NCBI GenBank assembly: GCA_964016885.1
Contig: OZ024740.1
Coordinates: 321,036,001-321,100,000, forward strand
Reading direction: 5' to 3'
DNA length: 64,000 nt
DNA from: Eledone cirrhosa
Taxonomy: Eukaryota
A program made the translations under genes and the position numbers. Every line of letters starts with the position of its first letter. The stretch's first letter is position 1. This document shows, one piece after another, positions 1,051-60,434 of this stretch. The notes under the pieces are model-generated. The model did not search any database, was not told the origin of the DNA, and was given only the letters and a program-made list of their open reading frames with translations.

Positions 1051-1844
1051 ATATGAAAAAGTGAGTCCTTCATCAGTGACCCTCCAACCGTCCTCGGCAT
1101 TTCATCGCTTTAAGGGCCATATGCCTCAGGTTGGTGCGAACAACGGCTAAAAAAAGTCGTTGGGACACGTAAACAAAGGGGGACGCTAGAGTAACAACAA
1201 AAAAGTTTAAGCAACGGAAAGTGAGTAGAAATAGACAAGTCCCAGATCTCTATGAATATAAACTCTGTGAAATCGTGAACAAGAGACGAAAGACCATCAA
1301 ACCTGGTTGAAATGTGAGCAAGGAAAGAATTTCGCCCAAGTTTGACGGGGGGGAAAAAAGAGAGAGAGAGAGAGAAAGGAGAGAAGAGGAAGAAGAAGAA
1401 GAAGAAGATAAAGGGGTCTGGTCTACGAATTCGGTAAACGCAAGTTTTGTGAAGTCGCAGACGAAAGAGAGAGAGAAAAAAATTCCATACCAGCTCGGTT
1501 AAGACCGCGCGAGAAAAGAATTACACACAGGTCAAACTTGAAGGAGGAGGAGGAAAGAGGAGGAGGAGAGGTAGTGACAGAGAATGAGTGAGTGAAAGTT
1601 GAGGAGAGGGTAACAGAGAGAGAGACTGCTAGAAGTGGTAAAGATACAAGGAACGAAACAGACGAAGGCAGCATGGAAAAAATATATGTGTAAATATGAT
1701 AATAATGGAGCTGCGGCGTTGCAAATGGGATACATATGAAAAAGTGAGTCCTTCATCAGTGACCCTCCAACCGTCCTCGGCGTGAAGGACTCACTTTTTC
1801 ATATGTATCCCATTTGCAACGCCGCAGCTCCATTATTATCATAT
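1051..1844. mobile_element. Fold-back element in (TA)n with a direct repeat and terminal hairpin; probable Penelope-like pseudo-LTR fragment
   Basis: 48-bp direct repeat (1051-1098 = 1734-1781). Perfect 62-bp inverted arms at 1694-1755 and 1783-1844. TA tracts on both sides. Confidence 0.55.
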
Positions 1845-2094
1845 ATATATATATATATATATATATATATAAAATCATCATCATCATTTTTTACATTGAC
1901 TTACTGAAGAGGTCACAGAATGTGTGACGAAAGAGTTTTGACAATATATAAACCTTCTGGTTATCGAACCAACCAGCCAACCGGAAACTTATAAAATAAA
2001 TTTAAGTGAAAACCAACAGGTGCGTGTGTTTTTATTGGCAACATGACCCTACCAAAGTATAACTATATATATATATATATAATCATAATCATGT

Positions 2095-2420
2095 TTGGCT
2101 TAGTGGTTAGAGCATTGGGGAGGTTGTGAGTTTGATTCTCAGACCAGGTGATGCATTGTGTCCTTGAGCAAGACATTTTATTTCACATTGTTCTAGTTTA
2201 TTTAGCTGTAGAAATAGGTTGCAATATCACTGGTGCCAAGCTGTAATGGCCATTGCCTTTCCTTTGGACAACATTGATGGTATGGCTAGGGGAGACCAGT
2301 ATGCATGGGCAACTGCGAGTCTTCCACAAACAACCTTTCCCGGACTTCTACCTAGAAAGTTCCCCTCCGAGGCACAAATCCTATGGTTATTCATGACTGA
2401 AGCGAGTCTTTACCTTTTAT
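2095..2420 (+). mobile_element. tRNA-derived SINE (TCCTTGAGCAAGACA family)
   Basis: A-box-like TGGCTTAGTGG, B-box-like GTTTGATTC and the central motif GTGTCCTTGAGCAAGACA. Relatives at ~10962, 36560, 41460 (-), 44356 and 46400. Boundaries approximate. Confidence 0.7.
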
Positions 2421-2452
2421 ATATTATATATATATATATATATATATATATA

Positions 2453-3720
2453 CAGGGTGTGGACGATATTTGTTCGCAATTTTCAACTGCTAATTTTATG
2501 CAAATTTTTTTTTACTTCCATTGTCACTCTTGTCTTCATAAAAACACTGACTACATTTCCATTATTTATTTTCAGAATAATTGATTATGAATAATTTTGA
2601 ACCTCCAAATTTGTGGAAGAGACACAGAGTTCTTCTTGGAATCCGCGCCGGAGGACAAATAAGGAAATTTCAGACTTTCTCAGCGTCAGCAGGAGAATGG
2701 TGGAAAAGGTCAGAAAGGAATTGGAAGATTCGGGATTCGACTATGAAGCAACATCAGAGAGGAAAACACATGATCGACGATCTGACGCCTTCAGAACGCC
2801 CGATTTCGTCGCTGAAGTTCAGGATATCAACAATGAACCTAGCAAGTCAATGCGTGCGATTGCAAGGGAAGGCGTGGATGAAAAGCTCATTAGGCGGGTG
2901 GTACATGAAGACATTCGCTACGTCTCATACAAGATGAGGAAAGGACAATTTCTGTCAAAGGCAATGCAAGAAAAGCAACTGAAGCACACAAAGAAGCTGA
3001 TCAACAAGTTGAAACACCCACTGGAGCCAGACATGCTGTGGTTTTTCTCCGATGAGAAAAACTTCTGCCAAGACAAGAAGATCAACTCCCAGAACAACAG
3101 GTGGCTCGCTGTCTCATCCAAAGATGTGCCCAGAGTCATGCAGACAAAGTTTCCAGCGACAAGATTGGTCTTAGGTGTCGTCAGCAGTCAAGGTGACGTC
3201 ATGCCACCTACCTTCTTCCCTGAGGGCCTCAAGCTAAACACCGATGGCTACATTCGCGTTCTGAGCGAGGTAGTAAAGCCCTGGATCGACCAGGTAGCTG
3301 CAGGTAGGCCGTACGTGTGGCAGCAAGACTCAGCGCCCTGCCATACCAGCCGAAAGACCCAAGTGTGGCTGTCAGAGAACTTCGTCAACCACAATTCACC
3401 TGACATCTGGCCTCCCAGCTCGCCTAACTGCAATCCCCTCGACTTCTTTGTGTGGGGCGCAGTGGAACGAGACACCAACAGATCTAGCTGCAATACGAAA
3501 GATGATCTGAAGGCCAGGATCACAAGTGCCTTTAGGGGCCTAAGTCGGGGGACAGTGATGAGGCCGTCATCAAAGCCAATGGCGGGTTTATCGAGTGAGA
3601 TCGAAAGAACAAGTCATGAAGACAAACTGACCCAAGTTTGATAAATATTTCTTAAAAAATAAAACTACTGTTATTTTTTCCTAGACAGTAATCTTGCGAA
3701 CAAATATCGTCCGCACCCTG
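2453..3720 (+). mobile_element. Full-length Tc1/mariner-superfamily transposon, DD37D (maT) type
   Basis: 27-bp TIRs (CAGGGTGTGGACGATATTTGTTCGCAA, 1 mismatch) and TA target duplication at 2451-52 and 3721-22. Internal transposase. Confidence 0.95.
2587..3598 (+). pseudogene. DD37D transposase, frameshifted near both ends
   Basis: Motifs FFSDEKNF, WQQDSAPCH and SPNCNPLD, with 37 residues between D2 and D3. The N-terminus MNNFEPP...GIRAG is in another frame (shift ~2652). The typical C-terminus EAVIKANGGFIE* is also out of frame with the 342-aa ORF. Confidence 0.9.
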
Positions 3721-57929: not shown

Positions 57930-59545
57930 GCTGGATAGTGTATGTACAAAGATAAAGCAACTTTCCAAATAGAATTGATTATCTGGTTGATTTCCTGGTA
58001 TGATTAATTAATCCAGTACAAGTATTCCATGAAGTTATAAATAGACAAGGTTGTAAAAAAACACAAAACTCTGAGGCATATATGTTTGTGCTCATCAATT
58101 CATTAATTATTGACATGTGTTTCAGTGCATTACATAATAGCCTATGGAATCTGGATTATTACATACTGCCATACATCTTTTGAGAGAAGTTCTAAAGATT
58201 AATGATTTCAAACCCAGGAAACGAGTTTTAAACAAGCTTATATAGAGATACATTCACACAGACATACTTACATACACTAAATTTGGAATTCACAGATCAT
58301 GGTGGTATTCATAGAGATGACGCTTTTCTACTGGTCAAAAAACGGACAACTCAAATTAATAAAGATCCTTCTTTAAAAACATGGGCCTAAAAATTTCTTT
58401 AGAACATAACTACATGGTCGACATCGTCCGGTCTATTCAAACCAAACCAAACCTATGTTGATAAAACTCTAACCACCCATGGTCCATTATCAACATTATT
58501 ATAAAAGGTGTATCTCTAAGGATCTCAATGAACTACTATAACGAAGCACTAGACAGGGCCAGATTCAATAGTAAGATCAAATTTATCCCGGATGCACATG
58601 AAGTACACATCACTCTGGAAAACATTTAAACCTAAGATTAAGAAAAAAACTCATACCAATACAAACAACACCGGAGTATAAGACGCATGATAACAACAGT
58701 TAAAATCCTTTAACAGTGCCTTACTGAAAAGTTCTCACTCCAAAACATATCTCTGGTATAACACTCCATACCAGCACCTAGGTCGTAATGAAAATCTCTA
58801 ACCAATTCTTTAGATTACCTTTTAGCATATACATTACTCTATAAATACTATGATATTTACGGTAAAGGCTTTTAACTCATATAATATTGAATCTATGAGA
58901 TTTTGAGAACAATACCTTAACATCAGTATGAGTGGCCAGTTATAGCCGGTTTGAACAGAAACAGGTGAGAGAATTCTGGCAGGATATGGCCAGTTCAAAT
59001 GGTTAATAGATAAAAGCTTTCCTTCCATTGACACCATAAGATCCTGAATAGGTGAACCATTAGGTCTCCCTTTTCAACTATACGGAACTTGAGAATTGTA
59101 TTACTAGGTAGAGTGCTTACAGCTGTGTACCATGGAGAAGTTTCCCCACACATCATCATCTAAGGGCATCCCAATACTGGACAATGGCACATACCTGAAA
59201 CTGATCGTACAATCTCTGTCATCAAATGGATGCAGTAGCAAAAACCGGAGATTACCATACACGTGATCAGAACCGTATGAGGATGAGGGAAAACTTCAGA
59301 TCCCAGAAAAATACTCCATACAACGTGCACGTGGAGGAAGTCGAAGGAATACTAAACAACATGATTAAAAACCTTAAATTCAAACCACACTCCACATCTG
59401 AAGGAGTTGGATGATTTGACATTCCACAGGAATAATTGTGCCTGCTGACAAGACAGGGAACATTTACTCTATGGATTACCAGACTTATATTAAGTGCTTA
59501 AGACAAAGAGATCCATAAGCACTATAAATTCACCAATTGCAGCAA
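57930..59545 (+). mobile_element. Penelope-like element remnants (two degraded pieces split by a MITE)
   Basis: HGGIHRDDAFL (~58298), YVDKNSNHP..II..I.KGVSLRIS..YNEAL (~58453) and IIVPADKTGNIY (~59431) resemble PLE reverse transcriptase motifs. Boundaries approximate. Confidence 0.7.
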
Positions 59546-59559
59546 CCTAACAACAACCC

Positions 59560-59880
59560 TGGGCACCTTTTTGAATTCTATGTCTAACACATGTCGACAA
59601 GCTTACAAAATCAGAAAAAAGTACAGCTTCCATGACATTCAGAAACATTTTTTCACCATCAGAGTTGCTGAAGCATGGAGCAAACTACCTGCATCAGTTG
59701 TTAGCTGTCGGGACACTGCATCCTTCAAAACTTCCATGCTTCCCGAAATTCGCCACTACATCTGATATCCCCCTCTACACTCAAGCACGCATGTGTGTGT
59801 TTAAGTATTATGACTCACACTGTTCACTATCCTGGTTTTTGTACATTATTCTTTATACTATACATACACATTTAACGAGT
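59560..59880 (+). mobile_element. CR1/L2-group LINE 3' end
   Basis: KHFFTIRVAEAWSKLPASVVS...SFK C-terminal motif. Confidence 0.7.
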
Positions 59881-60434
59881 TACAACCCTTTACAATCTGA
59901 GTTCAAACCCTGCCGAGGTTAACTTTGCCTTTCATCCTTATGGGCTCGATATAATCAACTTTCCCTTCCCCAAAAATTGCCGGCCTTGTGCCTAAATCAG
60001 AAACCTTTATTATTATCGTTATTCTGATGAGCAGATTGGGCTGGAGTCAGGTCCATAGCATTTACATAGATCCTGAGCCACCCATCTGTGAAACTGTTAT
60101 AACTGTATAACCAATAAAGACCTTTAGCATTTATATTACTCTATACTATTGTATTTTTGCAGTAAAAGTTTTATCTCACACAATATTGAATCTATGAGAT
60201 TTTTATACCATTTATTGAGAACAATACCTTAACATCAGCATGAGTGGCTGGTTACAGCCAGTTTGAATAGAAAGAGGCGAGAGAATTTTGGTTGGAAACA
60301 GCTGGTTTAAATGCTAAAGGGTTAATGTGAAACTAAAACTTTGTTTTGTTTTTAATAAATAAACTCTGCCACAGCATAGTGTTAACATTGGTATCTTCCT
60401 CAGTACCCACGAATCTACTGAACCACTTATTATA

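Follow-up and report, generated by a model that had tools for sequence, protein, structure and literature searches.

In a 64,000-nucleotide (nt) stretch of the Eledone cirrhosa genome (bases 321,036,001-321,100,000 of contig OZ024740.1, from the 3.0-Gb assembly GCA_964016885.1; hereafter the window) we found at least six short, non-coding repeat families lodged in (TA)n microsatellites, most of which carry a minimal type-I hammerhead motif. These families are likely to be retrozyme-like, non-autonomous retroelements copied by the machinery of Penelope-like elements (PLEs). They are taken as PLE-dependent because their anatomy matches that of the PLE insertions described by Craig et al. and fits the origin of retrozymes from PLE terminal repeats. 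We infer self-cleavage, an RNA intermediate and mobilisation by PLEs from the DNA sequence. The preliminary description of this DNA had proposed several short, motif-bearing, non-coding families in (TA)n; such families were recovered in the window and genome-wide, together with an abundant PLE that has the same kind of hammerhead and TA ends.

Hammerhead motifs were searched for with a minimal type-I descriptor tuned to the published form of PLE hammerheads, and decoy cores run on the real sequence (n = 539) served as control. Two matches to the calibrated descriptor were obtained in the window (5813-5859 and 12227-12272), whereas decoys averaged 0.037; 20 of the 539 decoys gave one match and none gave two, and across settings the decoy rate was 0.015-0.037 matches per window. 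A relaxed minimal version returned three matches compared with 0.04 ± 0.20 in 100 shuffles. In the window, motifs were thus more frequent than in either control. The third relaxed match (53701-53771, minus strand) forms only a single pair in helix III and does not pass the calibrated descriptor; it is probably due to chance. The bare core CTGANGA N6-36 GAAA occurred 14 times (5.3 ± 2.3 expected) and the core plus a hairpin eight times (2.2 ± 1.5), the latter excess being marginal, since 7 of the 539 decoys equalled it on the real sequence. A strict three-stem descriptor (helix III of at least 3 base pairs (bp), loop of at least 3 nt, paired 10.1/11.1) gave no match; it was too strict for the PLE-type form and was dropped because a 469-bp tandem unit used as a control shows a minimal helix III.

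Genomic loci chosen for their repeats were then included, 449,302 bases in all. They contained 118 descriptor matches in at least 12 sequence families, at least 54 of the matches coming from one unit. The same arrangement of three helices is seen in 12 or more sequence families unrelated to one another, the 5' region of a PLE among them. The core CUGANGA...GAAA, with an A15.1-U16.1 pair and a base other than G at position 17, is present at 5813-5859, 12227-12272 and 55931-55995 and in the genomic units of family D (see below). As a positive control, Rfam Hammerhead_1 scored above cut-off in 18 of 74 scored genome candidates. The Rfam-positive element ends in (TA)n at 6 of 10 loci, two loci being head-to-head pairs; no copy of it was seen in the window, where the ranked blastn matches were other repeats. 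An HH9-like Rfam match (31.8 bits, E 9e-5) recurs in the 469-bp unit, whose array ends in (TA)n and whose minimal hammerhead, with a palindromic helix III of two pairs, was recovered by the tuned descriptor. More motif families with differing stems were seen at locus L072 (minus strand) and elsewhere, for example ...CUGAAGA-UUUCUAAUAAGAAU-GAAAC-GCGU-A... and ...CUGAGGA-UUG...UAA-GAAACC.CUGGU-A....

The preliminary description had placed four independent inverted-repeat elements beside (TA)n. All four were confirmed, over wider spans than first given (Table 1), and each derives from a dispersed family with more than 1,300 candidate copies at a first look. Family sizes here and below are such first-look candidates and are lower bounds, a subset having been scored by alignment (40 copies each of families A, B and C, and 38 of D). 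A TA-type repeat touches both ends of all four elements, the left flank of C being a degenerate TA-rich tract. TA tracts make up 1.92% of the window; an end within 15 nt of one was found for five of six elements tested (chance about 5.5% each), and both ends of A and D lie no more than 5 nt from a tract (chance about 0.5%). In this test the inner left end 1682 was used for B and the right end 6033 for E, no tract being near either 6033 or the corrected end. Together with the flanks of family A given below, these figures uphold the proposed association with (TA)n. The independence of the four elements did not hold: those at 11.5 kb (C) and 55.7 kb (A) fall in one superfamily. At 1.7 kb (B) and 16.2 kb (D), the inverted repeats are not element termini but mark the point where a partial tandem unit is joined on in inverted orientation.

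Families A and C are built on one plan, consisting of a TA repeat, a one-sided conserved region of about 88 nt, a long palindrome and a second TA repeat, and a box of about 30 nt adjoining the palindrome is common to both. The order within the superfamily is (TA)n, antisense arm, sense arm with the hammerhead, conserved tail of about 88 nt, and (AT)n. Families with different palindromes share this tail, which flanks the palindrome externally on a single side; the arms are therefore not the termini of A and C. In the window copy of A, (AT)11 (55574-55595) and the tail region (55596-55683) precede arms of 175 nt (55684-55858 and 55864-56038; 99% complementary) and (TA)n (56039-56053). Family A numbers 3086 first-look candidates, and 40 of 40 scored copies, its own locus included, are full length at 93-100% identity. 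A TA repeat stands on both sides of all 20 copies examined, and the unique flanks are unrelated beyond the TA blocks. The (AT) block by the tail is often about 22 nt long and directly abuts unrelated DNA, and the TA block on the opposite side varies from 14 to more than 60 nt. Arm complementarity within a copy is 98.9% versus 97.9% identity between copies, and mirrored changes in both arms were found at 9 of the 175 pairs. Canonical copies of family C (1396 first-look candidates) are 97-98% identical, with arms about 190 nt long; the centre is shorter in the window copy and in some ten more. In the window copy the arms (11491-11553 and 11558-11620) measure 63 nt at 97%, and the palindrome lacks its centre and with it the hammerhead core.

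The arm consensus in A, C and their relatives reads AUUUURU-CUGANGA-(helix II)-GAA-AUAURUAU-A-AURAAAU, and its 70 instances in the genomic loci contain 29 different helix II segments. When the 29 distinct variants were aligned, 93.5% of cells were paired, against 29-60% in slid registers. Compensated cells numbered 76 compared with 27.1 ± 5.8 in shuffles, and double changes affected 10 pairs compared with 6.5 ± 1.1, none of these values being reached by any of 500 shuffles. Helix II, which the selection pattern left free, had double changes in 7 of its 9 pairs. The window copy of A represents the commonest subfamily, which has the core CUGAGGA and a weakened helix II. Its right-arm motif comprises stem I (AUUUUGU/ACGAAAU), the core at 55938-55944, a long helix II whose base is A.A, GAA at 55976-55978, helix III AUAUAUAU at 55979-55986 and A17 at 55987; cleavage is predicted between 55987 and 55988.

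Three loci had been called well formed, at 5813, 12203 and 55930. The first two pass the descriptor as 5813-5859 and 12227-12272, although the latter is decayed, whereas the motif at 55930 and its mirror fail it because helix II has the A.A base and a C.A mismatch; in the superfamily, this same helix covaries strongly.

Family E, with 1120 first-look candidates, is dispersed and non-coding and has a full unit of about 330 nt; its 39 other scored copies are 74-87% identical. The motif in the window copy consists of stem I 5813-5819/5853-5859 (6 of 7 pairs), the core CUGAUGA (5820-5826), helix II 5827-5831/5836-5840, GAA (5841-5843), the palindromic helix III ACAGCUGU (5844-5851), C17 at 5852 and a GUC cleavage triplet, the cut being predicted between 5852 and 5853. 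Of 19 copies, 12 retain an intact core, and 79.1% of cells are paired in the family fold versus 24-40% when partners are slid. The segment 5790-5880 also draws weak matches to C/D-box small nucleolar RNAs (8-18 bits, far under cut-offs), because the UGAUGA and CUGA boxes belong to the hammerhead core. Family F has 1078 first-look candidates at 80-86% identity. Its window motif shows a core at 12234-12240, a weak helix II of 3 bp, GAA at 12254-12256, helix III AUAUGUAU at 12257-12264, A17 at 12265 (UAUA) and a stem I with 6 of 7 pairs. In better copies the sequence is ...GAUGAG-AGC...GCU-CGAAA, and CpG decay is evident at the core; 81.7% of cells are paired versus 17-44% in slid registers, one helix III pair being AU in 12 and GC in 5 copies. 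The combination of a majority fold with weak covariation in E and F is as expected of dead copies descended from a motif-bearing founder.

The remaining two inverted-repeat elements are composites of tandem units. That of family B sits between (TA)9 (1037-1054) and (TA)15 (1841-1871). Its arms, 1682-1755 and 1783-1856, are 74 nt long at 96%, and a direct repeat of 98% (1047-1098/1730-1781) gives a spacing of 683. Most scored copies among its 1414 first-look candidates match only 1640-1781, and several are spaced 700-810 bp apart. Family D (1359 first-look candidates) forms arrays of 99% identical units that repeat every 457 bp and flip in orientation, the genomic array being bounded by (TA)n; in the window its arms, read by eye, are 16236-16278 and 16538-16580 (about 43 nt). 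The motif is present in each unit, and at least 54 genomic units from 19 loci pass the descriptor. In intact units the predicted cleavage corresponds to the position between 16317 and 16316 on the minus strand. Non-coding tandem units of about 150-450 bp with low G+C content and a type-I hammerhead are the mark of retrozymes of the non-LTR (non-long terminal repeat) type. D has these features in its genomic arrays, the window containing only the partial forward and inverted copies; A, C and E are dispersed single units and B has no motif. A unit near-identical to D occurs in five sequencing records from two studies, all of them assembled contigs and none RNA, which are labelled with two organisms; the family may be shared by a related species. 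Another tandem family, at L112 6268-8616, has a 591-bp period and 99.9% identity and ends in an inverted partial copy, the same architecture as in B and D.

Five further loci had been listed as degenerate hammerheads. The one at 16387 (minus strand) is the D motif and is intact in genomic units, and those at 29873 and 31592 (minus strand) seem, by eye, to be two decayed members of a single additional motif family. At 1904 and 60024 the core, helix II and GAAA are present, but stems I and III, judged by eye, are not acceptable.

Table 1. Elements, motifs and flanking tracts located in the window (positions count from its first base).
Feature	Position	Strand	Composition or basis
Family A copy, fold-back superfamily	55574-56053	-	Inverted-repeat search and family alignment
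Predicted hammerhead motif, family-A subfamily, right arm	55931-55995	+	Mirror copy at 55791-55727 (-)
Family C copy, fold-back superfamily	11405-11625	-	Conserved tail 11405-11490, palindrome 11491-11620, TA-rich on both sides
(TA)23(CA)4 tract	5755-5808		Joined to the 5'-truncated E copy
Family E copy	5809-6012	+	5'-truncated 12 nt upstream of the hammerhead
Minimal type-I hammerhead motif, family E	5813-5859	+	Descriptor match
Decayed minimal hammerhead motif, family F	12227-12272	+	Descriptor match; copy spans at least 12150-12340
Family B composite	1055-1856		683-bp unit 1055-1737, start of second unit 1738-1781, inverted partial copy 1783-1856
(TA)70 left of family D	16096-16235		Right flank of D is (TA)n 16685-16720
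Family D composite	16236-16684	-	Forward partial 457-bp unit head-to-head with inverted partial copy
Hammerhead-like motif of family D	about 16394-16310, core 16387-16381	-	1-nt insertion breaks stem I in the window copy
Decayed hammerhead-like relic	29841-29880	-	CCGAUGA, A-GG..CC, AAAAC-GUC-AAGAC; by eye, not a descriptor match
Decayed hammerhead-like relic	31560-31600	-	CUGAUGA, A-GGA..UCC, GAAAA-GUA-AAGAC; by eye, not a descriptor match
Decayed PLE reverse-transcriptase thumb remnant	58366-58587	+	tblastn; stops and gaps

A candidate source of the copying machinery is present in the genome in the form of an abundant PLE (PLE-1), with about 87,354 first-look candidates. All 111 scored copies are 94-100% identical and 101 of them have no stop. 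A full copy has an open reading frame (ORF) of about 714 amino acids from the first Met, in which reverse transcriptase (RT) motifs, and at the C terminus a GIY...YIG with internal cysteines, can be read. The Pfam GIY-YIG score on one copy, 20.4 bits, is below the 22.6 cut-off; among homologues, GIY-YIG scored 26.2 bits on one and RVT_1 25.9 bits on another. The search returned 1191 homologues at E<=1e-5, the best 120 of which share 38-53% identity, and in neighbouring Atlas clusters RVT_1 was found in 92% of one cluster and GIY-YIG in up to 50%. A TA/TG tail was present in 12 of 12 copies; nine of these are 5'-truncated at different points, five of the nine starting from a TA-rich repeat. At least three copies have an inverted copy of their own 5' region upstream (by eye), and just upstream of the ORF the hammerhead motif gave 7 matches in 12 loci. 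The truncation, inverted copies and terminal-region hammerhead of PLEs are thus all found in PLE-1, a young and very abundant element with a putative RT plus GIY-YIG. The window itself had been thought to hold RT remnants of a PLE throughout 57930-59545. This was retained for 58366-58587, where tblastn with the PLE-1 protein gave E-values of 1.2e-7 and 5e-7 with 33.7% identity over 101 amino acids, stops included; the rest is unsupported, Pfam searches of 16 ORF pieces around 57.0-59.9 kb giving chance-level matches only (E 0.018 and above). The remnant belongs to a lineage older than PLE-1.

According to the proposed mechanism, the elements would be transcribed and the hammerhead would cut the RNA just upstream of the 3' strand of stem I, probably as a dimer that forms via the palindromic helix III, a mode already published for the hammerheads of PLEs. 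Once (TA)n had been nicked by the PLE endonuclease, the (AU)n-type 3' end of the element would anneal at the nick and so prime reverse transcription. Template switching would then yield tandem and inverted copies.

For A and C a more specific proposal can be made, which we hold only tentatively. They might be a new kind of PLE parasite, a 'fold-back retrozyme', that is, a dispersed perfect palindrome of 350-400 nt with the same minimal hammerhead on both strands, driven by its 3' tail of about 88 nt and its own (AT)n end. Each copying would build the inverted arm anew from the sense arm and would thereby account for both the private substitutions mirrored between the arms and the variation among centres. 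Insertion would plant or lengthen a TA microsatellite, so that the elements would both use and generate TA tracts.

A number of results weigh against the reading of these families as ribozyme-bearing elements copied by PLEs. The Rfam hammerhead models found nothing in the whole window, at gathering or at E<=10, and gave no score on 5790-5880 (a 91-nt search around the 5813 motif) or on the D unit (a 191-nt search). Among the best 150 of 223 matches none was a hammerhead in an A/C locus. Folded as monomers, the motifs were no better than shuffles (z +0.2 to -1.1, the control included), D being the sole outlier at -3.45; the family-A motif in the window gave -0.47, and folding energies fail to discriminate even the positive control. 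No hammerhead motif was found in B (1055-1856), nor any ribozyme specific to that family. Stem covariation, which the preliminary description expected, was strong in A/C, but in E it did not exceed column make-up significantly (8 versus 6.2 ± 2.1; 125 of 500 shuffles) and in F it was marginal only (21 of 500 shuffles). Moreover, the pattern used to select A/C rows fixed stem I, the core and helix III, so that helix II is the only unbiased test, and related sequences can beat shuffles even without structure. With regard to the PLE link, the A/C tail and the sampled PLE ends share no sequence beyond (AT)n, and no coding element paired with the tail was found among the sampled PLE loci, where only (AT)n matched. 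Clean 5' truncation is rare in A/C, with 3 solo-plus-tail copies versus 29 palindromes, and only one of the three starts at (TA)n. For PLE-1, Pfam detected no family on the full ORF, RVT_1 was present in only 1 of 29 family members, and a PDB profile search with the family came back empty.

Some of these points would suit an explanation in which the motifs are real relics and the families spread or persist at unstable (TA)n by processes at the DNA level, namely unequal exchange, template switching during replication and palindrome formation, and not by PLE mobilisation. Tandem arrays of 99% identity with orientation flips and palindrome centres of differing size would be expected on that account, gene conversion could also make the mirrored arm changes, and the lack of shared sequence between the A/C tail and PLE ends as well as the scarcity of 5'-truncated A/C copies are in its favour. 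We consider it unlikely, however. Local DNA processes do not disperse copies, whereas thousands of dispersed copies are found on many contigs, with unrelated unique flanks just past the TA blocks; the E copy in the window is 5'-truncated at (TA)n, and a coding PLE shows the same architecture.

The fold-back elements could alternatively be derivatives of TA-targeting DNA transposons, either miniature inverted-repeat transposable elements (MITEs)/Foldback or Tc1/mariner-like elements, with functionless hammerhead-like motifs. Long, near-perfect inverted repeats with TA on both sides and the fact that nearly all copies are full length (40 of 40 scored A copies; 29 palindromes) agree with this, and fragments of Tc1-type transposases occur in the genome. 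One of them, an N-terminal fragment at L025 513-1292 (minus strand; HTH_Tnp_Tc3_2, E 7e-18), lies near a family-A copy and indicates that TA-targeting DNA transposons also exist in this genome. This origin nonetheless appears improbable in view of the one-sided tail of about 88 nt, which lies outside the palindrome and is common to families with different palindromes. Furthermore, the flanks are TA tracts of 14 to more than 60 nt and not a 2-bp duplication, the apparent terminal inverted repeats of B and D mark the joins between partial tandem units, and helix II covaries inside the arms, which is not required of a transposon terminus. In the family-A flanks, inspected by eye, no fixed short target-site duplication was seen besides TA tracts of variable length, and the terminal hallmark of MITE/Foldback elements is thus lacking. 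Helitron-type and other DNA-transposon readings were weighed on terminal features alone and set aside, the element ends looking unlike those of such transposons.

That the motifs are products of chance or other RNA signals in AT-rich repeats (UGAUGA...CUGA resembles C/D boxes), with no ribozyme at all, is very improbable: the missing Rfam scores, the weak snoRNA matches on the 5813 segment, the weak thermodynamics and the poor cleavage in vitro of PLE minimal hammerheads, as given in excerpts of PMC4209133, speak for it, but the decoy and shuffle controls, the same three-helix layout in at least 12 unrelated families including the PLE 5' region, the covariation of helix II and the feature-by-feature fit to the PLE minimal hammerhead of those excerpts speak against it.

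The preference for PLE-copied, retrozyme-like elements also rests on comparison with published systems, which is made here from excerpts of the sources cited. PLE hammerheads have a long helix II, often with the base at the 5' end of that helix unpaired or mismatched, a short helix I and a small palindromic helix III, and are presumed to act as dimers with weak activity (PMC4209133, Cervera & de la Pena 2014). The motifs described here resemble them in type-I topology, helix proportions, location in terminal regions and occurrence in many copies scattered through the genome, and PLE-1 carries the motif just upstream of its ORF. In contrast to the hammerheads of those excerpts, many motifs here reside in short non-coding families and not in PLE terminal repeats, and some copies of these putative ribozymes, known from sequence, have weakened helices with A.A or U.U at 10.1/11.1. 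A U.U at the base of helix II is described for one axolotl hammerhead among the non-LTR retrozymes of metazoa (PMC7229834, Cervera & de la Pena 2020).

Animal retrozymes are viewed as derived from PLE terminal repeats in a preprint (10.64898/2026.07.22.740005, Li et al. 2026). In the portions of these two sources that we drew on, retrozyme units measure 150-450 bp, are arranged in tandem and co-occur with PLEs, and their RNAs are described as highly self-paired. Family D (457 bp) and the 469-bp array are likewise non-coding, low-GC tandem units with a type-I hammerhead. Unlike the retrozymes of the PMC7229834 excerpts, A, C and E are dispersed single units and not tandem, and A/C form palindromes, nearly perfect and 350-400 nt long, that carry one hammerhead on each strand along with a one-sided tail and TA-repeat ends; a term search did not find 'microsatellite' in the text of that article that was available.

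Excerpts of PMC8557442 (Craig et al. 2021) report for PLE insertions a bias to (TA)n, partial tandems, an inverted truncated copy beside the unit and heavy 5' truncation, with very high copy numbers in invertebrates. These properties are shared by the elements described here. The (TA)n bias in that source concerns Naiads, whose endonuclease is N-terminal and in which canonical hammerheads are missing, unlike PLE-1 with its putative C-terminal GIY-YIG plus hammerhead motif. From Foldback/MITE DNA transposons, with which they have in common long inverted repeats, small size, high copy number and TA at the insertion site, the A/C elements differ in that the arms are not termini, a one-sided tail is present, no short fixed target duplication was seen and the internal motif covaries. 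The suggestion that the system was undescribed does not stand at the level of its class, since publications already cover the hammerheads of PLEs, non-LTR retrozymes and the bias towards (TA)n. What seems to be a new variant is the palindromic element with two hammerheads and a conserved 3' tail. No near-perfect, dispersed palindrome that has TA ends, a conserved tail on one side and the same hammerhead on each strand turned up among the best 15 of 625 papers from a literature search or by term look-ups in four articles, the supplements of which may hold something similar.

The surrounding DNA has a G+C content of 34-43% along the window, with plentiful microsatellites and short repeats. None of the 33 ORFs of at least 110 amino acids across the window had a Pfam match, including the longest (2601-3641, plus strand; 346 amino acids stop to stop). 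Two tRNA-like matches, at 48663-48734 (42.4 bits) and 10970-11033 (29.9 bits), are probably heads of tRNA-derived short interspersed nuclear elements (SINEs) and not tRNA genes, because a TA-rich repeat adjoins each. A very abundant SINE-like repeat of about 135-200 nt was seen at 13901-14161, 58817-59015, 59880-60013 and many other places, often directly beside TA tracts and the families described above. Its piece at 58817-59015 has 5697 first-look candidates, and no other sequence around the PLE remnant proved repetitive at the DNA level. At 61986-62775 lies a 790-bp array built of a 32/99-nt unit (GAGAGAGAGACAGCTGAGAGTTCC...).

If these interpretations are correct, nearly all of this genome's hammerhead motifs escape the curated covariance models, whereas a simple, decoy-controlled descriptor recovers at least 12 families, and ribozyme-bearing repeats may be badly under-annotated in invertebrate-type genomes. 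One system would unite what has mostly been reported apart, namely the minimal hammerheads of PLEs, retrozyme-like arrays and the insertion bias to (TA)n. Being young and very active (copies 95-99% identical), this system would suit the study of the poorly understood integration cycle of PLEs, including the origin of tandem and inverted copies. From thousands of loci, the palindromic elements with their two hammerheads would give rise to perfect hairpin RNAs about 175 bp long, which would bear on small-RNA pathways, on palindrome instability and on the origin of TA microsatellites.

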